64,000 bases of DNA from Mugilogobius chulae (taxonomy: Eukaryota): NCBI GenBank assembly GCA_046056395.1, contig CM100124.1:574968-638967 (forward strand). Reading direction: 5' to 3'. Shown here piece after piece: positions 12,130 to 64,000 of the stretch. Below the pieces are notes generated by a model that worked only from the letters and a program-made list of their open reading frames with translations, was not told the DNA's origin and ran no database searches. How positions within the stretch are numbered: position 1 is the stretch's first letter; every line of letters begins with the position of its first letter. Position numbers and translations under genes: made by a program.

Positions 12130-12870
12130 TACAATACTTGGCCAAAAAGATCAGAACAAATCTCAGCTGTTTTCGTTTTATACGTGGAGACTTGACTCTC
12201 CAAACTGCAAAAATGTTTCTGAATGCAATGATCTTCTCACATTTATCGTATTGTATCACCTCGTGGTCCCAGGCTTCTGCAACTACTTTGAAAACTCTCT
12301 GTTCATTATATAAGACTACCGGTTCTTGATAAAAAGCACAGACACTGGCATCACTGTGAAATTTTAAAGAAACACAAACTACTGAATTTTGATAATTTTG
12401 TAATTTTTAATCATCTTAAATTATTCTTTAAGTGTCTTAACTCTGATATGTCACTGAATTTTGAATTTATTAATGTCATAAATTGTACACAGAGAGTGAC
12501 TAGAGGTGCTGCTACTGGGAATTGTGTGTTCCCAGTTCAGAACATCTAGTGGTTTGTCTTCCTTTCTGCCAAAGGGCCAAGACTATGGAATAGCTTACCA
12601 ACTTATCTAAAACAGGAAACAAATAGTAATATCTTTAAGAGTAAACTAAAATGCTTGTATGTTTCCACCAAATATGTACACATGGATAAAAATGATTAAT
12701 ATATGCACACTTTCTATAAGAATGTATTTTATATGTTATTTAAATGTGACTGTTTTTGTAATGGTATTTCTACGGACAGGTGTTTAAAATTAGCACTTGT
12801 GCTAAAACACTCAAAGCAGTGCATCTGGCTGGTCCAATGTGATTGTGATGTCCATAATAAACCTAAATAA
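12130..12870 (+). mobile_element. L2-like LINE 3' fragment (ORF2 C-terminus plus 3' UTR)
   Basis: ORF 12138-12329 translates to ...MIFSHLSYCITSW (LINE ORF2 motif xHLEYC..W), followed in another frame by TRGAATGNCVFP...WNSLP...FKSKLK, a teleost L2-type tail signature. Confidence 0.5.
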
Positions 12871-13726
12871 AATAAAAATAACGTACTATATCAGCTAACA
12901 ACAGGTGGCTCTTAAAACAATTCAGTCTGAAGAAACAGCGGAGACTTCTGGATCCTGACCTGTGACTTCAAACCAGGACATTTGAAACACAGTGTTTTTG
13001 TTAGGCTCAGACGACTGCGGTCTTTCTTACATCTGGACAAATCAGGAAGTCACCAATGTTAATTGGTTGAAGCTCACAGTTGAACAAACTCTGAGGGATC
13101 AGTTCATACAGAAGTGTCACGGGGAATGCCAGAGTATGACATCATGTGACGTATACATAAGTTTTAAAAATGTCTTTAAGCTGGAAAAATATCTGTTATG
13201 TGAGAACAAAACAGTCAGGCAGTCTATTTGTAATCTAAGAACTGGAAATAACAGACTGTCAAAAATCACTGGCCGATACAAAGTCATAGACAGACATTTA
13301 TTTATTTATTAGTTTATTTGACAGGGACAATGTACATTAATAAACATTTCTGTAAATGTACCAGAATTAGCCCAAATGGCTATTTTTCATCTGCTGTCCC
13401 CGGACTATGGAGGATTCAGAGTGCCACAATTCAATATATAAATACACCATTAAATAATTTTATGCCAATAAATAAATATATTTTGAAATAAATAATTAAA
13501 TGCACAATATTTTTAAAATAATTATTTACATAATTAATTATATATTGAATTGTACAAATAAGAAATAAATAGATTTATAAATACTGAAATAATTTAATTA
13601 ATTAAATGTGGCAATGATTAAATACATACATTATTACATAATTAAATGTGTCAATATATGTTCAAATACATCTTTAAATAAATAAATGTTTCAATAAATC
13701 TTTAAAAAAAAATTAAAACTATTCGT

Positions 13727-13903: not shown

Positions 13904-14005
13904 GACCTGACGGCCATCGGAGTCACTAAACCTGGACATCGCAAGAAGATTTCTCTGGAGATCACTCAGCTCAACATCGCAGAGTGGCTCCCGGAGTTTA
14001 TCCCG
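13904..14005 (+). CDS. caskin1: Caskin exon, second half of SAM domain 1
   Basis: cag|GAC CTG...CCG|gtaaga; translates to [34 protein letters not shown] (Caskin1 reads [34 protein letters not shown]); phase 0/0. Confidence 0.85.
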
Positions 14006-15500
14006 GTAAGAAACGCAAACATACATGTAAACAACAACAAACAAACATCGCAGAGTGGCTCCCGGAGTTTATCCCGGTAAGAACGCAACGTACATGTAAA
14101 CAACAACAAACAAACATCGCAGAGTGGCTCCCGGAGTTTATCCCGGTAAGAAACGCAAACATACATGTAAACAACAACAAACAAACATCGCAGAGTGGCT
14201 CCCGGAGTTTATCCCGGTAAGAAACGCAAACATACATGTAAACAACAACAAACAAACATCGCAGAGTGGCTCCCGGAGTTTATCCCGGTAAGAAACGCAA
14301 CATACATGTAAACAACAACAAACAAACATCGCAGAGTGGCTCCCGGAGTTTATCCCGGTAAGAAACTCAAACATACATGTAAACAACAACAAACAAACAT
14401 CGCAGAGTGGCTCCCGGAGTTTATCCCGGTAAGAAACTCAAACATACATGTAAACAACAACAAACAAACATCGCAGAGTGGCTCCCGGAGTTTATCCCGG
14501 TAAGAAACGCAAACATACATGTAAACAACAACAAACAAACATCGCAGAGTGGCTCCCGGAGTTTATCCCGGTAAGAAACGCAACATACACGTAAACGACA
14601 ACAAACAAACATCGCAGAGTGGCTCCCGGAGTTTGTCCCGGTAAGAAACACAAATATCTACTGTAAACAACAACAAACAAACATCGCAGAGTGGCTCCCG
14701 GAGTTTATCCCGGTAAGAAACACAAACATACACGTAAACAACAACAAACAAACATCGCAGAGTGGCTCCCGGAGTTTATCCCGGTAAGAAACGCAAACGT
14801 ACATGTAAACAACAACAAACAAACATCGAGATGCTCCCGGAGTTATCCGGTAAGAAAAAACAACATGTAAACAAAACAAACAAACATCGAGAGTGGCTCC
14901 CGGAGTTTATCCCGGTAAGAAACGCAAACATACATGTAAACAACAACAAACAAACATCGCAGAGTGGCTCCCGGAGTTTATCCCGGTAAGAAACGCAAAC
15001 ATACATGTAAACAACAACAAACAAACATCGCAGAGTGGCTCCCGGAGTTTATCCCGGTAAGAAACGCAAACATACATGTAAACAACAACAAACAAACATC
15101 GCAGAGTGGCTCCCGGAGTTTATCCCGGTAAGAAACGCAAACATGATACACAGTCCGGAGTTTATCCGGTAAGAAACCAAATACATGTAAACAACAACAA
15201 ACAAACATCGCAGAGTGGCTCCCGGAGTTTATCCCGGTAAGAAACGCAAAACATGTAAACAACAACAAACAAACATCGCAGAGTGGCTCCGAGTTTATCC
15301 GGTAAGAAACGCAAAATACATGTAAACAACAACAAACAAACATCGCAGAGTGGCTCCCGGAGTTTATTCCGGTAAGAGAAACGCAAACATAACATGTAAA
15401 CAAAAAAAACAACACAACAAACATCGCAGAGTGGCTCCCGGAGTTTATTCCGGTAAGAGACGCAAATATGTACTGTAAACAACAACAAACAAACAAACAA
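13966..15500 (+). repeat. 71-bp minisatellite, about 21 copies, each unit = last 32 nt of the SAM1 exon + GT donor + ~39 nt of intron
   Basis: unit atcgcagagtggctcccggagtttatcccg|gtaagaaacgcaaacatacatgtaaacaacaacaaacaaac repeated head-to-tail from the genuine exon end. Confidence 0.9.
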
Positions 15501-17199: not shown

Positions 17200-17960
17200 G
17201 ATTGCAACTTGTGTCACCACCAAACTTCTGCACAAATATAAGTATTCATGCCTGAGTTTGGTCACATATCTACATGTCCGTTTCTTTATAGACATGAGTC
17301 CAGTGGTTTATGGCTGAACATGTCTGGATATATGTCTCACCCGGGTGTTTAAGGGCGTATAGGAATCTGCTGCTGTCGTGTTCAAGCCTCTCTCTCTCTG
17401 CGTCTGCAGATAGAGTCGACAATCAAGGCTCACTGTCGGCGCTGCTTGCATCAGAAGCTCCTCTATGGTCTTTCTTAGCTCCTCTATAACTCAAAAGTTG
17501 TCGATGGCAGCTTGCGTCGCCCAAACTCCTGCACAAATATAAGTATTCATGCCTGAGTTTGGTCACACATCTATATGTCCGTATCTTTACAGACATGAGT
17601 CCAGCGGTTTAAGGCTGAACATGTCTGGATGTGTTTCTCACCCGGATGTTTAAGTCTGGCAGGTGTTGGAAGCCATGCCAGGAAACAAACGATGTCAATA
17701 CCGGTTCCTTAGCAAGCTTGTGTCGCCACCAAACTCTTGCACAAATATAAATATTCATGCCTGAGTTTGGTCACATATCTATATCTTTATAGACATGAGC
17801 TTGGGTTTCATCAGCGGTTTAAGGCTGAAGATGTTCGGATGTATTTCTTACCCGGTTGTTTAAGGGGCGTACAGGTCAGGCAGGTGTTGTTGCTAAAAAC
17901 ATTGGGGCCAAGCCAGGAAACAAACGATGTTAAAGCCGGTTCCTTAGCGATCTTGTGGAA
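17200..17960. repeat. ~250-300-bp tandem repeat, 3 copies, at the 3' flank of the nested antisense gene
   Basis: 'caccaaacttctgcacaaatataagtattcatgcctgagtttggtcacatatctacatgtccg...' recurs at ~17215, ~17520, ~17725; a sub-segment ctctctctctgcgtctgcagatagagtcgacaatc... reappears inside the coding region at ~18040. Confidence 0.8.
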
Positions 17961-17964
17961 CTCC

Positions 17965-20900
17965 TTAATAGAAAAATTGGATGTTGCTGTGGTGGTCCAG
18001 GCCAAGCTGAACCAGGCGGCTGTTTCCAATCTGTCTCTCTCTCTCTTGGCGTCTGCGGATGGAGTCGACGATCGGGTCCACGCTGACGGAGCTGTTTCCA
18101 TCAGAAGCTATAGCCGTCCGGTCCTCTACACGATCACCACCAGTCGGCTCAGGGATGACAGATCTCGAATACTTCTCCTGCAGCTGGGTCATCAACGCCT
18201 TGGCTGCGTCCCTCTCCTCGCCGATCCTCCGTATCTCTTCGTTGGCTTCGACACACTCCTCTGTCTTCTTCACCAGCTCATCCCTGACTCTCTCAAACGT
18301 CCGTCTGCTCTTCATAAGCTTGTCTTCGGCTTGGTCGCAGTTCTCTCTGTACCTCTTCATCTCTCCCAGGGCATTGTCGCGCTCCTCTATGGCTTCGACG
18401 CACTCCTGTCTCTTCTTTATCAGCTCATCCATGTTTTGGTCGAACTTCTTTATGAGCGAGTTTTTGGTTTGTCCCACTCTTCTTTCATTCTTCTTTGCTC
18501 GTGCTTAGCGTCTTCGCACTCCTTTCTGTACTTCCTCTTCTCAACCCAGACACTTTCGTAATCCTGTCTGCACTTTCTCAGCTCTTCTCTAGTTTAATCA
18601 CATTCCTCTCTACTCTCTCTCAGCTCCTCTCTGATTGTCCTCCTCTGCGGTGTTTTTGTCCGCTCTAAGCCTTCACCTTTCAGACAGCTCTTGTTGTCCT
18701 TTCGCTCCGTTTCTAGCTCTTCCTTAAGCCAGTCTCGCTCACGATTACAAGCGAAGACTTGTTACTTTCCGTTTCCTCAACTTCTGAACTTTTCTTCTGT
18801 CGACTCTTGATCTCGTCCATTTCCCTTTCGTGACCCTCCTTCAGCCGCTTCAAGTCGTTCTCCAGCTTCTTCTCCAGTCCCTGACGTACTTCCTTAAACT
18901 CGGCATATTTACCTTTCATGACGGCTTTCATCTCCTCTTCCATCTCTCGTTTGGTGGAGCTTAAGCGTTCTTCTTTGGCTTTCTGGAGCTGTTCTTTTTC
19001 CTCGTCGAGCTCAGCCTGGATTTGTTCCAATTGTTGCTTGTGCATTGCTTTTAGTTCTTTTGCATTTTCCTCCTGCTGCTTTTGAAGTTTAGCTTCGAGT
19101 CTGGTATTTTCTTTCCCGATTTCATCCTCCAGATTCTCGCGGAGCTGCTCTAGTTTAGCCTCAGAGTCCTCTTTAAGCTTTTCTTCTTCCTCTCTCAACT
19201 TTGCAGACAGCGACTGACGTAGAGTCTGGAGTTGCATATCATTCTCAGCCTTTAGAAGCTTCTCTTGAGCTTTGAGACTTTCTCCAAGTCGCTCTAATTG
19301 TAGCTCGGATTCCTGCTTAAGTCTTTCTTCTTCCTGCGCTCTTTTGCTAAAATCGATTCACGCAAACGTTCTAGTTTCTCTTCAGTCTCTGCCTTCAGAC
19401 GATCCTTCTCCTCTTTGATCAACCTCTCTCGCCTCAGCCGATCAGTTCTAAGCTCTTCTTCAAGTCGCTCTAATCTGTCTTCCTCCTCTTTTCTCTTTTC
19501 TCTCATTCTCTCGTCAGTCTCAGCCTTTAGACGCTCCCCCTCCTTCCAGACCATCTCCTCCTGCACAATCCGATCGATTTGGATGGCTTCCCGTAAGTCC
19601 CGTAGTTCTTTCTCAGATTCCCGCTTCAGTCTTTCTTCCTCCTCTTTTCTCTTTGACAAAAACGACTGACGCATAGTTTCCACTCTCTTGTCAGTCTCAG
19701 CCTTTAGACGTTCCTCCTCCTTCCAGATCATCTCCTCTTGCACAATCCGATCGATTTGGATGGCTTCCCGTAAGTCCTGCAGTTCTTTCTCAGATTCCCG
19801 CTTCAGTCTTTCTTCTTCCTCTCTTCTCTTCGCTGACAGTGACCGGCGCAGTTCGCTCAGTCGTTCTTCGCTTTCAGCCTTCAGCCTCTCTTCTTCGTCT
19901 CTCTTCAGTGTTAGTTCTTCTGTCACTTCCAAACTCAAATCAGGCTGGAGCTTTTGAGACGAGGGCTGGTCAAACTTGTCGACCTGGGTGATCTGGGAGA
20001 AAGATCTTTGTCTTCAGTCATGCTTACTGCTTCCTCGTTGAAGTCATTGTCATAATTTGATGGACTGTCATCACAGAAAGAGTCTAAGTCTACGTCTGTG
20101 TTGTCGTCATCTTCTTCAATCTCGGGCTTATCAGACAAGTCTGATGAAGCTCGGGAAAGACTGAGCGAACGAACGGAAGAATGGTCTATTTCCGCTTCTA
20201 AAACCTCACTCACCTGCCCTTCCTTTTCAAAAACGTCATTGTCGTAGCTTAACGGTGGTGTTGGATCATCAAAGACTGAATTTAGCGATTTTAAGTCCAG
20301 ATCTGTGTCTTCTTCCAGTGAACTACGATCTCCATTATCTGCAGGTAGTTTCAAATCATCCCCCCAAAAGTCATCTTCTGTAGCTTTTCCGTCTCCTCCC
20401 TCATCATCTTCTTTAAGAACCTCGAGTGAAGCTCGTCATAAAAGTCTGATAAATCTTCAGAAAAACTGGACGATCTGGGAGAAAGATCCTCATCCTCTTC
20501 ATTGCCTTCTTCAGAGAACTTCTCGTCTCTTGCCTTTAACCTGATCTGTTCCTCCTCATCCAGCTCCTCGTTGTAATCAAAGTCTGAATTTAGCGATTTA
20601 GGTCCAGATCTGTGGCTGCGTTATTAGGAGCCATGTCTTCTTCCAGCGAACCAAGATCTCCAATATCTAAGTTTATATTTTCTGCTGCTTTGAGAGAAGC
20701 AGCAGTGAGAAAGAGCGTGTCTTTCTTCGTCTTTGTTCTTGCGGTTGAACGTTGTTCCTGCGCTGCTTCACGCCTGGCCTTACACCTCTGCAGTAGACGG
20801 TCAATGGAGTCTTCTTCCTCGTCGTCTGTTTCTGTCTCTGAAGGCAGGGCTGTGTTATTCTCTTCGGTGTCTGAGTGCAAGTCGCGTTCGGTTGAATATT

Positions 20901-21406
20901 GTTCCTGCGCTGCTTCACGCCTGGCTTTAAACCTGGCTTTAAACCTCTGCATTAGAAGGTCAAGGGAGTCTTCTTCCTCGTCGTCCGTTTCTATGTCCGA
21001 AGGCAGGGCTGTGTTCATCTCTTCGGTGTCTGAGTGCAAGTCGCGTTCTGTCGTTTCCATTTTCGCTGCTCCTTGGTTTTTCACATTCAGCTCTTCGTCG
21101 CTCGAAAGCACATCCAGGAGCTTTCTTCTCGCTCGTCTCTGTGAAATCTGAATCATTACCGACCTCTGTGGGAAAGAACGTGTCTTTCTTCGTCTTTGTT
21201 CTCGCGGTTGTGAGTTGTTCCTGCGCTGCTCTGCGCCTGGCTTCACACCTCTGCACTAGACGTTCAAAGGAGTCTTCTTCCTCGTCGTCCGTTTCGATCT
21301 CCGAAGGCAGGGCTGTGTTCATCTCTTCGGTGTCTGAGTTCAAGTTCAGCTGCAGGTCTCGTTCTTGCGTTTCCATTTTCAGTGCTGTTTTGGTTTTCGT
21401 ATTCAT
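17965..21406 (-). CDS. intronless antisense gene nested in a caskin intron: acidic N-terminal repeats plus long E/K/R-rich coiled-coil; open frame broken in at least 5 places as assembled
   Basis: consecutive minus-strand ORFs 20960-21406, 20590-21246, 19935-20354, 19294-19938, 18713-19237 and 17965-18477 abut or overlap in different frames; three ~150-aa N-terminal repeats (METxERDLHSDTEEMNTALPSxIETDDEEEDS..RCKARREAAQEQ), then EERLKAE/REEEERLKRESEKEL heptad-like repeats. Confidence 0.6.
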
Positions 21407-21600
21407 CTCCTCGTCGCTCGAAGCACGTACGGGAGTTTGTTCTCGCTCATCTTTGTGAAATCTGATCTATCTGTGTCGTACAGCGTCAGATAAACTGTTT
21501 TTACGTGGGAGCTCTGTGTCTGTGTGGCGTTCGGTTCGCTTCTCGTCGAGTTGTGACAGAATCGCTGACGTCACAGCCTAGAAAAGCCTAGAAAGGTTGT
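21407..21600 (-). promoter_or_regulatory. putative promoter/5' UTR of the nested gene, containing a palindromic CRE TGACGTCA
   Basis: tgacgtca at ~21567-21574, ~160 bp upstream (on the minus strand) of the ATG at 21406; an upstream in-frame ATG is followed quickly by a stop. Confidence 0.3.
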
Positions 21601-22295
21601 TGCTATGGTAACGTATTAGTTTAGTTTAGTTTATTTAATGAAACAGGGACAATGCACAATATACATTAACCTAAAATAGGAGAGATGCTTTGTATCAGGT
21701 TATAGCACAAGTCGTCCCTGGCAGGTTGATTTAACAGCAGATAAAATAATAATAATTATAAATTTAATTTATACTATAGTGCTGTTCTAGACACTCAAGA
21801 CGCTTTACAGTCAAAGGCAGTTGGGTCATTCTACAGAAACGGTGCCTTTTGTGTCCTTTAGTGGAAAATGAAAATATACAAAAATCATCAAAGTGTGTGC
21901 TTTGAATTTTAAATGTTTATTTAGAGTGTTCAATTTCAAAATCCAGATATTTCAAAAACTGCTCCTTGTTTTAGAGACACAGCCGGGAGAGCTGTTGATG
22001 TTGTTGAGGAGCATGGTACTAAAATGGCCGGTACATCTTAAAACTTCTGCCACATCATTCACACTCCTACAGGTCATTCATTCTCTCAGCACTTCACACA
22101 GTCGCTTTAAAATACACACTCACATCAGTCCGTGTAAAGAAAACTTAGTATTTTATGTTTTGCCAGAATGTGACAGTGATGAAATGAACGGCCTTTCCTG
22201 TCATGAATCCATAAAGAACTTTTATACAATGATTCAAATGGTCTCAGGGCAGATTTACAGGCCTGGGACCAACTTGTGATGCACTAAAAGAAACG

Positions 22296-23800
22296 TGGGA
22301 TAGGGCTGCACGATATTGACAACAAATCTAATTGCGATTTTTTTGTTTGATATTGCGATTTCGATTCGATATTCGATATTTATTAACATGTGTACATGGT
22401 TTTTTTTCTGTTGAGCAGGCCATTTTGCAACAATATTAAAAATAAACTGCCCTACTAATGAAAAGTTACATACATACATTTTAGATTGATTGATTGGATG
22501 TTGTGCTTGATAATTCAGTTGGCCTGTATAAACAGTAACTAAAGTAACTTACCCCAGGCTCACACTGCCTCCAGTCCAACTCCGGTGCAGCCACCGGACC
22601 GGTCTGCTACGGTGGGTGACTCACATTAGCTACGGTGGTCTACAGTCCTGCTGCAGCCACAGGCTCTGCTGCCGACCTCGCCAGACCCCGAACTCACGGA
22701 GGTTCACGTTCAACGTCAGAGAATAATACATCCATGGGGAGAATACGCGATCGCTGAGCACTTTTTTCTCTCTCTCTCTTTCGCTGAGCACAAATGTAAA
22801 CAAAGAACACGCGCCGAGTTTTGAGCTTGTTTCACGTCAGTTGATTTTCTGTTTGATTTTTCGCCCACAATGGGTAAGTACGGAGGTTTATTTACATTCT
22901 ATGTGTTACATAATCGTGTAAATGTCCTATTTTTACGTATTTTGTATTATTAGTGGTAACGTAATGATTTTATTTTGAAAACTACCGGATTTACTTCACC
23001 CGCGCTCGCTTGGTTTCCTGTTATCGTGTTTTGTTTTCACAACTTCATCAAAAAGGGCTCCGGCGTCCGGCCAAAATTTGAAACAAACGAAACGGATTCG
23101 GAGCGCCGGATTGGCCGTACCGGAGACACCGGACTGGACTGTAGCTGTGTGAGCCACTCTCGGACTTTTCAAGTTAAGTAAAGACTCCGGTGGCTGCATC
23201 GGAGTTGGACTGGATGCAGTGTGAGCCCGGGGTTAGACTATTATTTAACCTGTGACAGAAATATACATCTACACCAGCAGATGGCGCCAACGTCCCCTGT
23301 AGAGCTCTGGCGTGTTATACTGGAAAAAAAACAAAAAAGATTGCTAAAACTCCAATAACAATGTTTATCTCTTAAGGACTGAGCAAACCTGCGTGACTCT
23401 GCGGTGTTTACGGACTTATATCAGTCATGCAGCTTTTATTCACTTGGATTTTATGTTTGTGAAGAAAACAAACTGGATTTGCCTCGGAAAATATTGATGC
23501 TTTGCCTGTTCAGGTAAGCGGCTAAAGCTAGCAGCATCTGCAAAATGTGACTCTTTATTTATGAGTGATTTTATTGAATACGCACTAGAACAGTCATGAA
23601 AGTCATTTTGTGCAGTTTAAAGGCCTGTTGCTGTGGTGCTGCCCTGTGTTCACTTTCGTGGTGCGCTGTGTCCAATAAAAATAAAAAAGGAGGCTAAAGC
23701 GTAAGAAAAGGAGGAATATCGAGGCTTTTGCAATTAGGTAATCACAGTTGTCAGTATTGATTCGATATCAATATATCGTGCAGCACTAATGTGGGACAAT
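22296..23800. mobile_element. DNA-transposon relic with TIR GGGCTGCACGATAT(A)TTGA
   Basis: 22298 gggctgcacgatattgacaa matches the reverse complement of 23765-23795 ttgattcgatatcaatatatcgtgcagcactaat; carries family-X repeat copies internally. Confidence 0.55.
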
Positions 23801-23939
23801 AATTTCATTCAGATACGTAAGTCCCGAAGTCAAAGATACTCAAAAGAGTTTCTACTGAAAAAGAATGTCCAGTTAGTCATGTTGTGCTAAAAATGTAAAT
23901 CTACGAAGCTTAAACCTGGTGTCCACAACACAAGTTTAT

Positions 23940-24345
23940 TCTACTGGCAGGAGGACTTGGGGCGTGGCTTAGCTCTCTTGTATTCTATTGGCAGGAGGAC
24001 TTGGGGCGTGGCTCAGCTCTCTTGTATTCTATTGGCAGGAGGACTGGGGGCGTGGCTTAGCTCTGTTTACTCTATTGGCAGGAGGACTTGGGGGCGTGGC
24101 TCAGCTCTGTTTATCTGTATTAACAGGAGGACTTGGGGGCGTGGCTCAGCTCTCTTGTATTCTATTAACAGGAGGACTTGGGGCGTGGCTCAGCTCTCTT
24201 GTTTTCTATTAACAGGAGGACTTGGGGCGTGGCTCAGCTCTCTTGTTTCTATTACAGGAGGACTTGGGGCGTGCTCAGCTCTCTTGTATTCTATTGGCAG
24301 GAGGACTTGGGGGCGTGGCTTAGCTCTCTTGTATTCTATTAACAG
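23940..24345 (+). repeat. 43-45-bp tandem repeat, about 10 copies, each unit = polypyrimidine tract + AG acceptor + first ~24 nt of the SAM2 exon
   Basis: unit ctcttgtattctattggcag|GAGGACTTGGGGCGTGGCTCAGCT; the final copy runs into the genuine exon (GAGGACTTGGGGGCGTGGCTCAGCTCCATAGGCCTGCTGCAG, translating to [14 protein letters not shown]). Confidence 0.85.
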
Positions 24346-24484
24346 GAGGACTTGGGGGCGTGGCTCAGCTCCATAGGCCTGCTGCAGTATCAGAGGAGAC
24401 TTTGTGAAAACGGATACGACTCGATGGAGATCGTCAAAGACCTGAGCTGGGAGGATCTGCAGGAGATCGGCATCACCAAACTGG
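24346..24484 (+). CDS. caskin1: Caskin exon, SAM domain 2 (major part)
   Basis: aacag|GAG GAC...AAA CTG G|gtcagg; translates to [47 protein letters not shown] (Caskin1 reads [47 protein letters not shown]); phase 0 start matches the 14005 donor. Confidence 0.85.
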
Positions 24485-28722: not shown

Positions 28723-29660
28723 GAGGGCTCTGCAGCTGGGAGGCGGGGCCAGAGCGCTGTGACGTCAGACTCGGAGTCGGAGGAGTTACGAGCTTTGGGC
28801 GGAGCTTCACAGAGCAGCTCCAGCGAGTGCATCCCATTCGCAGAGGAAGGAAATCTCACCATCAAACAGAGACCCAAAGCCCCGCCTCCTCCCGCGCCGA
28901 AGACGTCCTGGGACTGGACCAGGACCGGACCAGGGACCAGACCAAAGAGCAGCAGCAGACCACGCCGGAGTTTAACCTGAAGGAGTCGGACACGGTGAAG
29001 CGCAGGCACAAACCCAAAGACTCCGGCGACGGTTCTCCAGGCAGAAGTCCCCAGGAACCAGACAGCGCCACGTCCAGTCTGGAGGAGCTCAGGGCCTTTC
29101 CTCCGAGGCCGGCCCAGGACCTAGCGGCGTCCCCGGGGTCTGTGCTGAGAGCTGCTTCTCCGCTCAGGGCTGGTTCTCCGCTCAGGGCTGGCTCTCCGCT
29201 CCGGTTTGAGTCGTCCCTCAGACCTGGATCTCCGCTCAGACCTGCCCCGGATCGAGCCTCTTCTCCCGGTTCTCCGCTCCGGTTCGAGTCCTCCCTCAGA
29301 CCCGGTTCTCCGCTCAGACCTGCCCCGGACCGAGCCTCTTCTCCCGGTTCTCCGCTCCGGTTCGACTCCACCCTCAGACCTGGATCTCCGCTCAGAGTTG
29401 CCCAGGACAGAGCTGCGTCTCCAGGTTCTCCGCTCCGGTTCGACTCCACCCTCAGACCTGGTTCTCCGCTCAGAGCTGCCCAGGACAGAGCTGCGTCTCC
29501 GGGGTCTCTGCTGCGGCCGAGCCCCTCTTCAGACCCGGCTCTCCTGGTTCTCCCGGCTCTCTTGGTTCTCCCGGTTCTCCTGGTTCTCTGCACAGGCCTT
29601 GTCTCTCTCCCAAACCTGCCGTGGCGCCTAAACCTGTGCGCCAGAGTCTGCTCAGTCAAG
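28723..29660 (+). CDS. caskin1: Caskin exon, Pro-rich region with ESDTVKRR motif and a 20-aa SPLR coding tandem repeat; frame changes twice within the exon as assembled
   Basis: cacag|GAGGGCTCT; three successive frames read EGSAAGRRGQSAVTSDSESEELRALGG, then FNLKESDTVKRRHKPKD...(GSPLRFESSLRPGSPLRPAPDRASSP) x5, then SPKPAVAPKPVRQSLLSQ|gtcaga (Caskin1 reads ILTESDTVKRRPKAKE; PPVSPKPVLTQPVPK). Confidence 0.75.
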
Positions 29661-32665: not shown

Positions 32666-32900
32666 GCTCCGGCCGCTCGTCTCCAGGTCTGTCTGTGTCC
32701 GTGCTCCAGAGCGTGGCCTTCTCCTCGCCCCCCCGCTGCCTAAGCCCCGCCCTCAGCCCCGCCCGCTCCCCCTCCCGCAGTCACATGACCTCTCCGGGGT
32801 CACATGACTCTGAGGTGCAGCTGCGACTGGATCAGACCAGTGTGAGTCTGGAGGCGGCTCTGCAGGACGTGGAGCGCAGCCTGGAGCGGCAAACGGACTG
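32666..32900 (+). CDS. caskin1: Caskin exon (penultimate)
   Basis: ctcag|GC TCC GGC translates to (G)SGRSSPGLSVSVLQSVAFSSPPRCLSPALSPARSPSRSHMTSPGSHDSEVQLRLDQTSVSLEAALQDVERSLERQTD; phase 1 start matches the 29660 donor (G|GC); donor GGACTG|gtaata; the end phase mismatches the last exon by 1 nt. Confidence 0.7.
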
Positions 32901-33300
32901 GTAATAACCGGTTATTCATGTTTATTAAGCTCTTATTCATGTGTAACAAGCCTGGAGCGGCAAACGGACTGGTAAGAACTGGTTATTCATGTTTATTAAG
33001 GTTTATTCATGTGTTACAAGCCTGGAGCGGCAAACGGACTGGTAAGAGCCTGTTATTCATGTTTATTAAGGTCTTATTCATGTGTAACAAGCCTGGAGCG
33101 ACAGACCGACAGGTAATAACCGGTTATTCATGTTTATTAAGCTCTTATTCATGTGTAACAAGCCTGGAGCGACAAACGGACTGGTAATAATCTGTTATTC
33201 ATGTTTATTAAGCTCTTATTCATGTGTAACAAGCCTGGAGCGGCAAACCGACTGGTAAGAGACCCTTATTCATGTGTTATTAAGGTCTTATTCATGTGTA
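32878..33300 (+). repeat. ~70-bp tandem repeat, 6 copies, unit = last 21 nt of the exon + GT donor + ~45 nt of intron
   Basis: cctggagcggcaaacggactg|gtaa(t/g)a(a/g)c.ggttattcatgtttattaag(c/g)tcttattcatgtgtaacaag recurs at ~32878, 32951, 33021, 33092, 33163, 33229. Confidence 0.9.
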
Positions 33301-33775
33301 AAAGTACTGGCACTATTTTATTTATTGAACCTTTATTTTACCAGGAGGTCCCTTGAGATAAAACTTGGACAGAACAATTCAGTGAAACATTTAAACCATG
33401 ATAAACATATATATAAAGAAAAGTAAAGTATCCAGCTCAAGAATGACATTTAAAAGTTTCAATGAAGACATTTTTAAGAAGAAACTTCAAAATAGTCAGT
33501 ACCAGAAGTTTTAAAGGTTTCTGAATGTTGTTTCAAACCCAGGGAGCTGCCGTTCAGCCCAGTTCAGTGTTAATCAACTTAAACAGAAGCTACTGTGAAG
33601 AACGAGAGTTATATCCAGTGTTCGCTGGAGTCAGGAGCTGCACATGTCTGAGGCAGTTTATCCATTATGGCTTTATATATAAAAATAAGCCAGTGCTGTT
33701 GTGTTCTGAGGCTCTAAGGCAGGAGACCAGAGCAGCTCACAGGGGTGGGTCCTGAACAGTGCGTTTGTAATAAAT

Positions 33776-57489: not shown

Positions 57490-57950
57490 ATGTGCACTGA
57501 CTTCAACCTGGTTTAGACCTGGTTTAGGCCTGGTTTAGGCCTGGTTTAGTCCTGGTTTAGACCTGGTTTAGACCTGGTTTAGTCCTGTTATAGTCCTGGT
57601 TTAGTCCTGGTTTAGACCTGGTTTAGTCCTGGTTATAGTCCTGGTTTAGACCTGGTTTAGTCCTGGTTTAGACCTGATTATAGTCCTGGTTTAGACCTGG
57701 TTTAGTCCTGGTTTAGACCTGGTTTAGTCCTGGTTTAGACCTGGTTTAGTCCTGGTTTAGTCCTGGTTTAGTCCTGGTTTAGTCCTGGTTTAGACCTGGT
57801 TTAGACCTGGTTTAGTCCTGGTTTAGTCCTGGTTTAGTCCTGGTTTAGTCCTGGTTTAGTCCTGGTTTAGACCTGGTTTAGTCCTGGTTTAGACCTGGTT
57901 TAGACCTGATTATAGTCCTGGTTTAGACCTGGTTTTAGTCCTGATTTTAG
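57490..57950. repeat. 11-bp satellite (CCTGGTTTAGA/CCTGGTTTAGT)n, about 40 copies
   Basis: direct reading; the same monomer is dispersed at 28598-28640, in mvp intron 1 (60760-61620, 62290-62480) and at 63360-63410. Confidence 0.9.
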
Positions 57951-58916
57951 TCCCTACAACCTTTAAAAAATCGTGAAATTAAAATCTCTCTAAACCCGAC
58001 TCGTCCTCCAGGCTCCTGCAGAGTCTCAAAAGTCTTAAAGGTCCCGTGTTAAACTGAATGAACTTCAGTCGTGTTATTCTGCTGTTCTTTTACCACATTT
58101 TTTTAAACTATTCTGCTTTTTAGGCTCTCTTATATTTTGTGGATATTTGTGGAAACTCCATCGTGTTTTTTCCACGCACTGAGAAGCTGTGGATTCAAAT
58201 GTAGGCAAATACAAGACTGGAAACACTGGAACGACATAAAAACATTTTCTGTTTGGACACTTCCTGAAAAATGCTAAACTTGTATGAATGAAGCAGAACA
58301 CAGCAGCAGCTTTGTTTCTGATGAATAATTATGTTAAAACAAGTATTAAAAAGGTGCGTAATTTAGCATCTTTGAATTTAAAATGGGAAATGTAAAGTTT
58401 TAAATGTTTTTTCTGAACATGAAGCAGCATTTTTAGACTTAAGACATGACCGACTGTAGATGGGTTTTTGGTGCGTTGGCCTGCGACATGTTTGTGTATA
58501 AAGCAGAGCTGTGGAATATATCGAATTTTAGATAATATCATGAATGTAGTTTTCAAGATATCCAAAAATGGAATATGGAGTATATCGTTCATAGTTAAAA
58601 TTGCCACAAAAAGAACCTAGTGTAAGAATAGAAAATAGAGAAAATGATGCAGTAACTTTCAATTTAGGACATAAATATAACATGTCTGCACTTCTGTGAT
58701 TCTTTTACAACATTTTACTTTGTTCACGTGACATCCCAGTATTCTCCAGACCGATAATACTTCACACAGATGTTTGTAGCTCAAATAAATCTTCAAAGTT
58801 GTAATACAAAAGTGATCAGGTCTAGTCATTTAAGGAAATCACCAGATTGAAACAGTTGAAATGATTTTTTAGATATTTAATGACAAAGTACAAAAATCAG
58901 AAATCTTCTTCACCGT

Positions 58917-60180
58917 CTACATCAGACCTGGGCAAACTGCGGCCCGGGGGCCAGTTGCAGTCCTTGGACTGTTTTAATTTGGCCCCCAGCACTCTTTTGA
59001 AAATAAGTGTTACCAGTGTCGGGCCGTGCATTTCCTGCCTAGGCCTTCAGTGGAGCTCCTTTTAAATATATTCACTTGTCAATAACCAGCTGATGGATAT
59101 TAAACTATTCTATTACGCAGACACGTGATAAAGAGCAAAGCACCATTACTTCTATAGTCAGAATAAACACATTTACACACACACCCAAAAATATTTACTC
59201 ACCAATAGTCTGAATTACTTGTACACCAAAAACACAAATGGTCCTGAATCTGGAGCTGGTGGTAGTGGGCGCGCGGATCTTGCGCTGGACCCCGTCTTGT
59301 CCCTGAGGCACCCGGCGACGCTTCCAGTGCCTCGTAGATTTCCTCATATTGGCTCCTCTCTCGTGCAGTTATGTTTCCCTCTGCACTTGCTCGTTTAGCT
59401 GTAAATCCACTCTGGGTACGCTAGGTTTTGGAAAGCACCTTGTAAGTGTTCAGAGTTGGCCGGTCTTTCTGAACAATGTCCAGCTTTTCTTGAAAAGTCC
59501 GTCTTGAAAAAGGCTTTACCAACAGACAGCCATTTGATTGGCTGTCTGTGCTTAACAACATTAAGCACAGACAGCCAATCAAATGTCGTAGTTATCGTGA
59601 CGTTGCCGGTGGCCTGCTAGAAGGCCTTGGCGTCGTCAACGTAAAATCTGATTGGTTGAAGCAACAGTTTGATACACACTTATGTTAAGAGACGGAGCCT
59701 TCAAAACTGATTGTGAAGACCTCGGGCAGATTTCACTGACCCTGACAACAACTGATGGCTGAAATATGATTGGTTAAAACAATATATTATGAAACACACG
59801 CCTGAAAGCTGCAAAACGATGGAAATGCTACGAAGAAGCCGATGAATAATTATTGAATTATTATTATTATGCATGCGTGCACTAAATATTAGTTATATCA
59901 GTTTGTTATTTAGATATTTTTAGGCCACAGAGAAGGCCTTGCAGGCCCTGACGGTCCGCCACTGCGTGTTACTCTTTACTTCTTTTATTGGATTGATTTT
60001 GCTATGGAGCATGTGTCTTTGCTTGTTTTCCTAATATTTATCATCAAAAATGGTCAAAATACTGTAGTGGATTAAAAAGCCTGTTTGCACATAATAATGA
60101 TAATTTGTTACACCAATGACCACGGACCGGCCCTCCATCAGTTCTCCGGGTTTGAATCTGGCCCTTAGTGGAAAAGAATT
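58917..60180. mobile_element. DNA-transposon relic (GGCCC-family) with an internal nested palindrome at 59503-59580
   Basis: 58917 cagacctgggcaaactgcggcccgggggcc matches the reverse complement of 60140-60180 ggcccttagtggaaaagaattacccacctctggtctag; internal acagacagccatttgattggctgtctgtgcttaacaacattaagcacagacagccaatcaaatg. Confidence 0.45.
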
Positions 60181-60594
60181 ACCCACCTCTGGTCTAGATT
60201 CATGACAACGTTGTATTCTTCAACTTGAACACAGCCTATTGACGTAATAATCGTCTGAAGATCGTTATCGAGATGTGCCCAAAAAATATCAAGATATTCA
60301 TTTTTGTCAATATCACCAGCACAAGTATCAAGGTTTTATTTCATTAAAAAGAAGGATTTTGACAAGGCAAGAGATAACTGAGGGCTTAAAAAGTCTTACA
60401 TTTCTTACTTAAAGTTGTGCAGGAGCCATGTATCTCCTCTGTCTACAGTTCTAGAGAGTCATGTCTAAGAAGTCAGATCCTCTCGTTCTCCTCTTGTTCT
60501 TCTAACGTTCTCCTCTTGTTCTTCTAACGTTCTCCTCTTGTTCTTCTAACATTCTCCTCTCTTTCTTGTGTCTCCAGTTCTTTATTAAAGAGTG

Positions 60595-60758
60595 ATGTCT
60601 AAGAAGTCAGGTCCTCGAGTCGTGGACATGGATCTCCCTGTGGACGCCTCCATCATCAGGATTCCTCCTCATCACTACATCCACGTCTGGACCAGAACAC
60701 CAACATCGCCCGCGTGGAGACCGGACCCGCTGACCTACATCAGACAGGACAATGAGAG
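60595..60758 (+). CDS. mvp: major vault protein exon 1 (start codon at 60595)
   Basis: ATG TCT AAG AAG... translates to [54 protein letters not shown](R); human MVP reads [39 protein letters not shown], so the middle ([17 protein letters not shown]) is in the wrong frame as assembled; exons 2-3 confirm the gene; donor GAG AG|gtgagt. Confidence 0.8.
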
Positions 60759-61620
60759 GTGAGTTAGACCCAGTTTAGACCTGACTTAGACCTGACTTAG
60801 ACCCACGTTCTGGACCAGAACACCAACATCGCCCGCGTGGAGACCGGCCCGCTGACTTATATCAGACAAGACAATGAGAGGTGAGAAAGACCGGACCTAG
60901 ACCTGACTTAGACCTGGTTTAGACCCACCTACATCAGACAGGACAATGAGAGGTGAGAGAGACCGGACTTAGACCTGGTTTAGACCTGACTCAGACCTAC
61001 GTCCTCGACCAGAACACCAACATCGCCCGCGTGGAGACCGGCCCGCTGACTTATATCAGACAGGACAATGAGAGGTGAGAGAGACCGGACTTAGACCTGA
61101 CTTTAGACCTGGTTTAGACCCACCTACATCAGACAGGACAATGAGAGGTGAGAAAGACCGTACTTAGACCTGACTTAGACCTGGTTTAAACCCACCCACA
61201 TCAGACTGGACAATGAGAGGTGAGAGAGACCGTACTTAGACCTGATTAGACCTGGTTTAGACCCACCTACATCAGACAGGACAATGAGAGGTGAGAGAGA
61301 CCGACTTAGACCTGGTTTAGACCTGGTTTAAACCCACATCAGACAGGACAACGAGAGGTGAGAGAGACCCAGTTTAGACCTGACTTAGACCGCTAGACCT
61401 GGTTTAGACCCACTACATGGACATGAGAGTGAGAAGACCTGACTTAGACCTGGTTGACGGTTTAGACCGGTTTAGACCCACCTACATCGCAGGACAATGA
61501 GAGGTGAGAAAGACCTGACTTAGACCTGGTTTAGACCGAGTTTAAACCCACCTACATCAGACAGGACAATGAGAGGTGAGAAGACTCGACGTAGACCTGG
61601 TTTAGACCTGGTTTGCTATG
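60700..61620 (+). repeat. ~70-180-bp tandem repeat, about 12 copies, each unit = 3' end of mvp exon 1 + GT donor + intron start (which is the 11-bp CTGGTTTAGACC satellite)
   Basis: units such as acctacatcagacaggacaatgagag|gtgagagagaccggacttagacctggtttagaccc; longer units (60800-60880, 60985-61090) repeat ~60 nt of the exon (ccagaacaccaacatcgcccgcgtggagaccggcccgctgacttatatcagacaggacaatgagag|gtgaga); further copies at 62290-62480. Confidence 0.9.
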
Positions 61621-62559
61621 ATAAAACTTTATTGTCCATATGAAAACGGAAATTTGCCTTACATATCTGCAACTGCTGCAAGTCCCACATACAACAGACT
61701 TCATTCATCAACATAAAAGATAAAAATACATGAATACATGCGGTAAGATCATGTGTTCTTCCTTTGGTTTAAAAATGTGATGGAACATGACACAAAAGAA
61801 TGTTTAGATTTATTCCTCCTGCTGCAGGGAAATCGAAAACGCCGTCCAGAGAGTAAGAACTCAAACTCATTGTTTAAAACATGATCTGTGTCTGGAGATC
61901 CTGTAGACCAGCCGTTCCCAAACTTTTTGGAGCCGTGCCCCCCCTATTGGCCCATAGATTGCCTGAGGCCCCTCAGTATTATTTCACACTCCATTCAAAG
62001 TTAGTTAGAATGTATATATTTCATATTAGCATTGGGAATCACTGCTGTACCAATGCCACTGTTTTCTTTGTTTGCAAATGAGTGAATGTGCTCTCAAGGG
62101 GAGGTCCTATTTTGGAGCAGATGTTCAGAAGCCTCTGAATCCTGTTCTTTTGTTTAACCGAAAGGCCACAGAACCAAGCCTTACTGCACTAAAGCAGCAG
62201 ACTTTGGATAGTGACTATATAGAACTGCTCCAAGATGTTTCTGTTGACTCCAAAAGAGCTGAGCCTCATCAGAAACACGATTCGTTGTTGCACAAATCTA
62301 CTTTCTTAGACCTGGTTTAGACCCACCTCACTCGACAGGACAAGGAGAGATGAGAAAGACCGGGTTTAGGCCTGGTTTAGACCTGGTTTAGACTTGACAT
62401 AGACACACCTTCATCAGACAGAACCACAAGAGGTGAAAAAACAGACTTAGACTTGGTTTAATCCTGGTTCAAGCCTGGTTTACACCTGGAGATGCATTTT
62501 TCTGTCTTCAGAGCCCGTTTCCTCCCGTGGCAAATTAGATTCATGTTTTGTAGTGCTAT

Positions 62560-62941
62560 ATTCATATTTTCATCTCTCGTGTCAGAGTCCTGTTTCCTCC
62601 CCTGTGGTCTTGTAGTGTTACATTTATATTTTCTCTCGTGTCAGAGTCCTGTTTCCTCCCCTGTGGTCTTGTTGTGTTATATTCAGTATTTCTCTCTTGT
62701 CAGAGTCCTGTTTTCTCCTCTGTGGTCTTGTAGTGTTACATTTATATTTTCTCTCGTGTCAGAGTCCTGTTTCCTCCTCTGTGGCCTTGTAGTGTTACAT
62801 TTATATTTTCTCTCGTGTCAGAGTCCTGTTTCCTCCTCTGTGGCCTTGTAGTGTTATATTTATATTTTCTCTCGTGTCAGAGGCCTGTTTCCTCCTCTGT
62901 AGTCTTGTAGTGTTACATTTATATTTTCTCTCTCGTGTCAG
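62560..62941 (+). repeat. ~60-bp tandem repeat, 7 copies, each unit = polypyrimidine tract + AG acceptor + first ~25 nt of mvp exon 2
   Basis: unit ttttctctcgtgtcag|AGTCCTGTTTCCTCC(T/C)CTGTGG(T/C)CTTGTAGTGTTACATTTATA repeated; the final copy is the genuine exon-2 start. Confidence 0.9.
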
Positions 62942-63137
62942 AGTCCTGTTTCCTCCGCTGCGGATGCTGATGGTGCCTCCGCGTCACTACTGCGTCATCC
63001 TCAATCCCGTTGCCCGCGACGACAACGACCAGGTCCAGTTCGACCAATCAGGGCAGGCCAAGCTGAGACACGCCGACCAGGAGATCCGCCTCACCCAGGA
63101 CCCGTTCCCCCTGTACCCCGGGGAGGAGGTCCAGCAG
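62942..63137 (+). CDS. mvp: major vault protein exon 2
   Basis: gtgtcag|A GTC CTG TTT translates to (R)[65 protein letters not shown] (human reads [67 protein letters not shown]); phase 2 start matches exon 1; donor CAG|gtatga. Confidence 0.9.
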
Positions 63138-63235
63138 GTATGAACCCTCTGTAACCCTCTGTACCCCGCTGTGACCCGGGGAGGTACTGAACCCTCCTGT
63201 ACGTGTCTGAACCCTCCTGTACGTGTGTTTTTCAG

Positions 63236-63358
63236 GACGTGACGCCGCTGCAGATCGTCTTTCCCGACACGGCTCTGAGGCTCCAGGCTCTGCTCGAGTT
63301 CACCGACTCCAAAGGAACCAGAGGACGGCCGGAGACGAGTGGCTCTTCGAGGGACCAG
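63236..63358 (+). CDS. mvp: major vault protein exon 3 (1-bp deletion frameshift near aaaggaacc as assembled)
   Basis: tttttcag|GAC GTG ACG CCG CTG CAG translates to DVTPLQIVFPDTALRLQALLEFTDSKG; the -1 frame then gives [15 protein letters not shown] (human reads [41 protein letters not shown]); donor CAG|gtctga. Confidence 0.85.
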
Positions 63359-64000
63359 GTCTGACTGAGTCCTGCTTTAGTCTGGTTTTAGTCTTGTTTT
63401 AGGGCGTATTCAGACCTATAAAATTTGGTCCGATTTAAACGATCCAGAATTCGTTTTTTCTGACAGTTCAGACTTTTTTTTAGGTCTGAATAAAGACAAG
63501 CGAACTCTGATCCGAATCAAACGATCGGACCGAGACCACCTCTTCAGGTCGGTCTCGGGCTGATTGCAAACGGATTCTGGTGCGGATCACTTATGATCTG
63601 AATACAAACGGCCTCGATCCGAAACGAACACGAAACACATGCTCTTTTTGGACCTGACAAGCCACCGTCACAACGCACAGTCACTAAGCACAATTCTAAG
63701 CACAATTTCCTATCTACACGGTTTATTCTGTTGTCTAGATTTGTCTGAAAACATAAAGATATTTTCTCGCGTTTGTTTCCATCAAATAAAGCACTTTCAT
63801 TTTCAGTCTTAACCCTTCGTGTTTGCACAATGAAACCAAAACAGTAACACTTGGACAGTCTTCTTACCGTGATGGAGTAGAGACGAGGATCCTTACAAAC
63901 CAGATTATCAAATTGCCTCCTTTCCTTACTCGTTTAAATCTATATGTCCAGAAAAATAAGAAAGCAAAGACAGGCTACTGTTCCATTGTGAGCACTGATG

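Follow-up and report, generated by a model that had tools for sequence, protein, structure and literature searches.

Splice-junction minisatellites at an mvp intron of Mugilogobius chulae and at neighbouring exon boundaries

How does an intron come to end in a row of near-identical acceptor sites, and how can the one site that is joined to the exon be told from the others? The question is raised by the first coding intron of a gene assigned to mvp (major vault protein, MVP) in a 64,000-nucleotide (nt) stretch of Mugilogobius chulae DNA (GenBank assembly GCA_046056395.1, contig CM100124.1, positions 574,968 to 638,967 of the forward strand), which is called the window here. The 3' end of this intron is made of tandem copies of the intron-exon junction itself, and its 5' end carries a comparable array of donor junctions. 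The explanation favoured below, with a probability of about 0.68, is that the acceptor array is a lineage-specific minisatellite straddling the junction, a by-product without dedicated function that is tolerated by way of splicing at the outermost sites, in an intron that has been lengthened from both ends.

The acceptor array

The array that raises the question is the following feature, in which all units other than the authentic junction are called decoys:

62491..62941, + strand: acceptor-junction minisatellite, consisting of one degenerate unit (62511), six decoys (62585-62880) and the authentic 3' splice site (62941)

Tandem Repeats Finder (TRF) places the array at 62548-62960, with a period of 59, 6.9 copies, 91% matches, 2% indels and a score of 653, and a second, independent repeat finder gives a start-to-start spacing of 59 throughout. 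There are seven occurrences of a GTCAG/AG motif, whose AG ends at 62585, 62644, 62703, 62762, 62821, 62880 and 62941 (spacings 59, 59, 59, 59, 59 and 61). An eighth, degenerate copy lies upstream and reads cttcag/AGCCCGTTTCCTCCCGTGG, its AG ending at 62511. The unit, tcttgtagtgttacatttatattttctctcgtgtcag/AGTCCTGTTTCCTCCNCTGNGG, combines 37 nt of intron end with the first 22 nt of mvp exon 2, and these 22 nt belong to the exon encoding RVLFPPLRM. The initial annotation of the window, which had described seven copies of a polypyrimidine tract, an AG and an exon-2 start at 62560-62945, is thus borne out in coordinates, copy number and unit.

Each unit also contains a branch-point candidate of the yUnAy type, TTTAT, whose A lies 21 nt 5' of the junction, and a tract with a pyrimidine content of 73-77%; no other AG intervenes between the branch-point candidate and the CAG. 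Each unit thus forms a full 3' splice-site module. From -37 to +22 the unit alignment shows hardly any difference between the decoy acceptors and the real site, and the body of the exon follows only the last unit (AG 62941), at the edge of the array. That last unit alone reads CCG CTG CGG; the decoys all read CC(C/T) CTG TGG and so share a C-to-T change at the CpG of an Arg codon that is conserved in relatives. Because TGG is common to all decoys, the array appears to have grown from a decoy that was already mutated, and not by repeated copying of the real junction. Interior units 2, 4 and 5 are 97-98% identical, and the first, degenerate and authentic units are the most diverged.

Junction arrays of this kind are known in amphioxus as mirages, the original report of which is said to be that of Canestro et al. 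2002 in Nucleic Acids Research. Mirages affect both kinds of exon boundary, many of their units keep the AG or GT, and their interior units are homogenised; splicing is normal by reverse transcription PCR, the arrays vary in length, and the mechanism has been called unclear (PMC3087553, PMC3902484). The acceptor array is likewise a head-to-tail array of minisatellite size. Each unit joins the intron end to the adjoining part of the exon, and this exon part is single-copy in relatives; the intron part is not conserved between species. The authentic junction stands at the array edge, contiguous with the remainder of the exon, and the interior units are homogenised, with the boundary units diverged and excluded from concerted evolution. 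Arrays elsewhere in the window extend the likeness, since they occur at 5' as well as 3' boundaries and keep many AG and GT dinucleotides. Unit sizes also overlap (10-72 bp in amphioxus Adh3; 44-78 bp here, plus one of 164 bp). The acceptor array is real, and it is a mirage-type junction minisatellite, a new vertebrate member of the group.

There are also differences from the amphioxus arrays. The host is a teleost and not a cephalochordate, both intron ends are affected in two separate introns, and the local density is high, at 8 of 16 junctions (see below). Normal splicing and length instability have been shown for amphioxus mirages, whereas the window arrays are known from the sequence of one assembly alone. 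A full-text literature search turned up no description of junction minisatellites from a teleost. For vertebrates there is a mention of "overlapping megasatellites", in which exon-intron segments have been amplified (bioRxiv 10.1101/2021.07.19.452908).

The intron, its gene and its relatives

The intron spans 60759-62941 (2183 nt), and about 69% of it is junction-derived. It is built, together with the exons around it, as follows:

60578..60758, + strand: first coding exon, ATG at 60595, MSKKSGPRVVDMDLPVDASIIRIPPHHYIHV...TYIRQDNE-R (tblastn; alignment with its own copies and three relatives)
60759..61614, + strand: donor-junction minisatellite, ten decoys of the exon-1 end, each with GTGAGA and an intron start of 11-mer repeats (TRF; motif positions)
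61615..62300, + strand: non-repeated intron core, 686 nt
62300..62490, + strand: two old, degenerate donor-type units (fuzzy motif search; direct reading)
62942..63137, + strand: exon 2, listed as 198 nt, intact, ending GEEVQQ (tblastn 100%; Pfam Vault_2)
63236..63358, + strand: exon 3, 1 nt shorter than in three relatives, an apparent frameshift (tblastn; alignment)

The three exons joined give Pfam matches to Vault_2 (8e-26) and Vault (9.6e-15). The nearest database relatives are teleost major vault proteins, the closest named protein being that of Pampus punctatissimus (84%), and both the N-terminal Vault repeat domains and the exon structure are conserved with two of the relatives described below (L002 and L004). 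On these homologies the gene is mvp or a very close paralogue, as had been proposed. Because the window stops within mvp intron 3, the gene may instead be a short mvp-like paralogue and not full-length mvp. The ATG exon is itself preceded by an acceptor, tctccag/TTCT at 60577. The designation "intron 1" is therefore right for the coding sequence and probably off by one for the transcript.

The donor array includes, with the authentic junction, 11 copies at 60748-61565; with the two degenerate units, this comes close to the twelve copies claimed initially, and the claim that both ends of the intron carry junction arrays is upheld by TRF and by a donor motif search. The period is 71-73 nt, except that two long units of 122 nt carry 78 nt of exon 1. 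The authentic exon-1 donor reads GAGAG/GTGAGT and all donor decoys read GTGAGA. Of the degenerate donor copies near 62339 and 62425, one has GT changed to AT (GAGAGATGAGA at 62339-62355) and the other reads AAGAGGTGAAAA.

The intron part of the donor units is made of an 11-mer satellite family, TTTAG[A/T]CCTGG, which is also found at 57507-57953 (40 copies upstream of mvp) and 63376-63402 (intron 3), in addition to 60770-61614 and 62300-62490 within the intron. The reverse complement of the 11-mer (ACCAGGTCTAA) matches the exon 3 donor junction ACCAG/GTCTGA at 10 of 11 positions. The intron core has no further copy within the 64-kb window, which rules it out as a dispersed repeat, and it has no Rfam match; no known RNA family was found by Rfam in the intron as a whole. 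RNA pairing between donor and acceptor units, as in intron bridging or template switching, was considered and rejected, the duplex energies being no better than those of shuffles (102/1000 and 45/1000).

The relatives compared at mvp were Scomber japonicus CM050020.1 (L001), two Logan contigs (L002 and L003) and L004. The intron position is common to L001, L002, L004 and the window. L002 and L003 are 89-91% identical in amino-acid sequence to the window gene and have an intron of 750 bp with one donor and one acceptor; TRF found no tandem repeat anywhere in the contig. In L004 the homologous intron is 244 bp long, with a single copy of each junction. L002 carries the same three exons followed by further Vault repeat exons, and in L004 they are followed by Vault_3, Vault_4 and MVP_shoulder. 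Exon 2 has 72% nucleotide identity to the relatives, with mostly conservative amino-acid changes, and each donor copy in the window matches their single exon-1 end. In this comparison with related teleosts, which the initial annotation had named as a check, the single-copy junctions of the relatives show that the mvp junction arrays are lineage-specific. An exact look-up of two window open reading frames (ORFs) crossing the array gave no match, and in a homology search with an ORF of two units plus exon 2 the repeat part was unmatched, the best match (90% identity) covering the exon only.

L001 contains two tandem short mvp-like genes, at 10001-13084 and 18990-23084, the second of which combines N-terminal Vault repeats with an Ifi-6-16 domain. 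Intron 1 of each of these paralogues has an unrelated 29-bp minisatellite of 13 copies that is wholly intronic, and their remaining introns are filled with microsatellites.

Proposed choice of the outermost splice sites

What would follow if a decoy were used can be read from the reading frames. The decoy acceptors would lengthen exon 2 by 61, 120, 179, 238, 297 or 356 nt. Only the +120 extension (acceptor 62821) is open in frame, with a predicted gain of 40 mostly hydrophobic residues; the +297 extension keeps the frame and contains a stop, and the other decoys shift the frame into early stops. Read-through of the authentic exon-1 donor gives AGG TGA, so that any downstream donor would lead to a premature stop. 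Since decoy use would yield premature stops or an insertion, functional MVP would require that the first donor (60758) be joined to the last acceptor (62941).

These frames bear on two statements made earlier about the array. The ORF at 62492-62851 exists (119 amino acids). However, its description as formed purely from repeated exon-2 starts was imprecise: it arises because a 59-nt unit that is free of stops in two frames is read in rotating frames, and not from exon starts read in their own frame. The many alternative 3' splice sites about 60 nt apart are correct as candidate sites with 59-nt spacing, and their alternative use is a potential only.

The following sequence of events is proposed. 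The founding event would have been the tandem duplication of a 59-bp segment comprising 37 nt of intron end and 22 nt of exon start. The decoy copy would then have expanded to 6-7 copies by slippage or unequal exchange, and the same process would have acted at the donor end of the same intron and at several nearby junctions. The spliceosome would join donor 60758 to acceptor 62941, leaving all decoys intronic. The sites are probably told apart by exon definition: a downstream donor and the body of exon 2 lie beyond the last acceptor alone, and the decoys instead precede 22 exon bases and then another intron end. Rare decoy use would give transcripts with premature stops, which are expected to be targets of nonsense-mediated decay, with acceptor 62821 as the exception. 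The individual function of the acceptor array is thus probably nil.

A precedent for such a choice is the 37-bp variable number tandem repeat in intron 7 of human F7, whose first element spans the exon 7 donor; the identical pseudo-sites are silent and the most upstream donor is selected (PMC1557585). The mvp donor array at 60759-61614 resembles it closely, as its first element also spans the authentic donor and near-identical intronic pseudo-sites follow. The acceptor array does not have this arrangement. F7 is a donor array at a single locus, whereas the mvp acceptor array requires the most downstream site, and 5'-to-3' scanning therefore cannot explain the choice.

In another teleost case, reported by Chen, DeVries and Cheng in 1997, the notothenioid antifreeze glycoprotein gene is said to have arisen from trypsinogen with amplification of a 9-nt element across the intron 1/exon 2 boundary. 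There too a short acceptor-junction segment was amplified in tandem; however, the 9-nt units were in frame and became new coding sequence, whereas the 59-nt mvp units shift the frame and would stay intronic. The array also resembles NAGNAG and other tandem alternative acceptors in placing several candidate AGs upstream of one exon. It differs from them in that the spacing is 59 nt and not 3, that each AG has its own branch-point-like motif and pyrimidine tract, and that the spacing is not a multiple of 3, so decoy use mostly shifts the frame.

Introns can be gained by tandem duplication of an exon segment containing AGGT (PMC3265369, PMC4974935). As in that process, the duplications at mvp supply extra splice sites, and the duplicated material would be removed as intron. 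No new intron has been made here, however. An existing one has been lengthened, and its presence at the same position in L001, L002 and L004 rules out intron gain.

Recurrence across the window and the origin of the arrays

The initial annotation treated the array as a peculiarity of one intron, whereas the same architecture is found at caskin and at other mvp junctions, and the recurrence changes what needs explaining. The junctions were tested with 55-nt junction-spanning probes at 16 homology-supported junctions of caskin and mvp, from a partial exon map of this one 64-kb window. Strong junction-spanning tandem copies were found at 6 of the 16, and weak ones at 2 of the 16. Random probes gave copies in 35 of 400 cases, most of them inside these same arrays (Fisher p 0.0024), and random probes outside the arrays in 12 of 360 (Fisher p 3e-5).

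The caskin-like gene lies on the + strand at about 2-36 kb, and is identified by SAM_1 (3.9e-19), by matches to Caskin-1 and SAM proteins and by conserved exons; a Caskin-tail match is below the Pfam threshold. Its junction-associated features are:

2412-2865, + strand: 164-bp array of 2.8 copies, each unit holding a whole 49-nt exon-like segment (a putative mini-exon) with tcctcag/ and /gtaa(c/t) flanks
11955-12110, + strand: two-copy duplication of about 78 bp at the SAM1a donor, CATGACTCCAGAG/GTA...AACTACTCTGCTAACGT
13973-15495, + strand: 71-bp array of 22 copies; SAM1b exon end of 33 nt (...AEWLPEFIP) followed by GTAAGAAAC, with 38 nt of intron in total
23937-24371, + strand: 44-bp array of 10 copies, each with intron end ctcttgtattctattaacag followed by 24 nt of SAM2a exon start
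32878-33301, + strand: 71-bp array of 6 copies across the donor junction ...SLERQTDW/gtaata of a further exon

The GT is intact in all 22 copies of the 13973-15495 array, and the body of exon SAM2a follows only the last copy of the 23937-24371 array. These two arrays are the two ends of one caskin intron (SAM1b-SAM2a), which measures about 10.3 kb in the window, versus about 100 bp, free of repeats, in two notothenioid caskin loci (L005 and L006); the notothenioid gene may be a paralogue rather than an ortholog. In the 32878-33301 array some decoys read GTAAGA and are better donors than the authentic site. A 41-bp repeat of three copies near caskin in Champsocephalus esox was considered and rejected as a junction array, as it is purely intronic.

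Three further features lie at the other mvp junctions:

60437..60482, + strand: decoy of the first coding exon (its acceptor and 5' part), ctgtctacag/TTCTAGAGAGTCATGTCTAAGAAGTCAGATCCTC, with a decoy ATG at 60461
60484..60567, + strand: pyrimidine-rich 22-bp repeat of 3.8 copies, downstream of that decoy and upstream of the authentic acceptor (TRF)
63161..63202, + strand: degenerate decoy of the exon-2 end and donor within the 98-nt intron 2, with a 12-nt deletion relative to the real junction

The first of these decoys places an acceptor 129 nt upstream of the real one, and its match spans the junction, with a probe score of 30 versus 18.6+-2.3 for shuffles (z 4.8). The intron 2 decoy has a local alignment score of 30 versus a shuffle maximum of 21, and 0 of 500 shuffles reach 30.

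Two coding repeats lie within the caskin region. At 29193-29516 a Ser/Pro-rich caskin-like exon contains an in-frame 78-bp (26-residue) minisatellite of 4.2 copies. On the - strand of the enlarged caskin intron, at 17900-21400, there are ORFs rich in E, K and R that resemble coiled coils and are internally repetitive; one of the repeats, at 19507-19830, is in tandem and in frame, with a unit of 177 bp. Neighbouring ORFs meet in different frames, which suggests frameshifts or very short introns.

The units of the five main arrays have nothing but the splice consensus in common, and their exon parts are locus-specific. A mobile element or introner is therefore ruled out, there being no dispersed copies of one sequence. 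With the exception of one AG-rich low-complexity tract, all TRF arrays with a period of at least 40 and at least 2.8 copies touch an exon; in the two confined to coding sequence the periods, 177 and 78, are divisible by 3. Three unrelated donor arrays (13973-15495, 32878-33301 and 60759-61614) have a common modal period of about 71 bp; they differ in sequence and in exon share (33, 23 and 25 nt). The periods of the junction arrays (44, 59, 71, 71, 71 and 164) are all 2 mod 3, which is given no weight, as the spacings vary by 1-nt indels.

These regularities are the main support for the strongest alternative, namely that the arrays come from a genome-wide mutational process targeted to junctions or exons in this lineage. 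Segments might, for example, be duplicated in tandem when DNA damage linked to transcription or splicing is repaired, or a hotspot might be centred on GC-rich exons. In-frame coding arrays and arrays that span junctions would be the only ones to survive selection. This proposal concerns origin and is compatible with silent decoys; the odds on it are put slightly short of even. It is favoured by the excess at junctions over random probes, by the contact of the longer-period arrays with exons, by the multiples of 3 in the coding ones, by the two introns (mvp and caskin SAM1b-SAM2a) with arrays at both ends, and by the shared 71-bp period. It is held back by its basis in a single window with a partial exon map, and by the fact that the mechanism is considered unclear in the amphioxus literature too (PMC3087553). 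In addition, where exons are short, a duplication of about 60 bp that overlaps one will in most cases have to include a junction. An exon-centred origin followed by selection would yield the same set of in-frame coding arrays and junction-spanning arrays, and cannot be separated here from true junction targeting. More tentatively still, this may be a teleost lineage with genome-wide exon- or junction-targeted tandem duplication, in which decoy arrays sit on a large fraction of boundaries, a donor unit of about 71 bp is preferred and introns grow from both ends.

Several points weigh against a tolerated by-product of neutral duplication. A purely neutral account leaves unexplained why duplications are concentrated at junctions, and likewise why donor arrays share a period of about 71 bp. 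The decoy GT and AG are slightly better kept than random column pairs; in a pooled test the difference is not significant (P = 0.053), which leaves room for selection on the decoy dinucleotides. The use of the outermost sites is deduced only from what functional MVP would require. Finally, the mvp coding sequence has three indels relative to its own decoys and three relatives, a -1/+1 pair in exon 1 (60687 and 60726) and a -1 in exon 3 (about 63322). They reflect either assembly errors, which would make copy numbers and unit lengths approximate, or a decaying gene, in which case there would be no need for the arrays to be tolerated through correct splicing.

The decoy sites could have a role, either by recruiting U1, U2AF or PTB-type factors that tune the splicing rate of the enlarged intron, or by supporting regulated unproductive splicing, in which decoy use ends in a premature stop and decay and so sets the level of MVP. 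Splicing is reported to be faster where 5' splice sites compete. Each acceptor unit is a full module, AG is kept in all decoys and GT in nearly all donor decoys, and all decoy acceptors but one lead to premature stops. Functional decoys are nonetheless improbable: conservation of the splice dinucleotides does not significantly exceed that of other columns, relatives with a conserved MVP lack the arrays, the interior similarity of 97-98% points to recent turnover and not to long-term conservation, and the decoys are silent in amphioxus and in F7 (PMC3087553, PMC1557585).

It is also unlikely that this mvp copy is a decaying duplicate, a pseudogene in which arrays accumulate because splicing is unconstrained. 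The three frame-disrupting indels in about 480 nt of mvp coding sequence, versus none seen in about 750 nt of caskin exons, would fit such decay, as would the extra mvp-like paralogues of scombriform fishes. However, the exon-1 indels compensate each other and one lies in a C-run, exon 2 is intact with mostly conservative changes, the real junction keeps the CpG-containing Arg codon lost from every decoy, the authentic donor is GTGAGT versus GTGAGA in the decoys, and caskin looks intact yet has such arrays.

Least likely of all, and very improbable, is that a noisy long-read assembly produced the arrays or their copy numbers: the single-base indels in mvp coding exons and the many 1-nt length differences among units do suggest residual indel errors, and the look-ups returned no independent sequence from the same species, but neighbouring units have structured substitutions in common, all decoys read TGG versus CGG in the real exon, the same architecture occurs at eight different junctions that are unrelated in sequence, long reads can readily cross an array of 450 bp, and we know of no assembler error mode that targets exon-intron boundaries.

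The value of the finding lies in what the recurrence implies for array origin and for splice-site choice. Arrays of near-identical splice sites are natural experiments in that choice: splicing has to settle on the first donor out of about 11 and on the last acceptor out of 7-8, among sites whose sequences offer almost no distinction. Junction minisatellites have so far been mainly curiosities in amphioxus and at one human locus, their origin unexplained. A vertebrate genome that carries them at about half the exon boundaries of two adjacent genes would allow genome-wide statistics on the sites and origin of arrays, and would also allow intron growth by junction duplication to be tested. It would serve as a warning for gene predictors as well, as decoy junctions and frame-rotating ORFs invite wrong models. 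If a targeted process does act throughout the lineage, it would be the vertebrate equivalent of the amphioxus mirages and possibly the mechanistic key to them; if only this window is affected, the arrays are a well-documented oddity of modest importance.

One minor feature lies upstream of the mvp exons. A near-perfect hairpin at 59520-59598 (gacagccatttgattggctgtctgtgcttaac...gcacagacagccaatcaaatgtc) gives weak miRNA-like Rfam matches on both strands, with scores far below the gathering scores.

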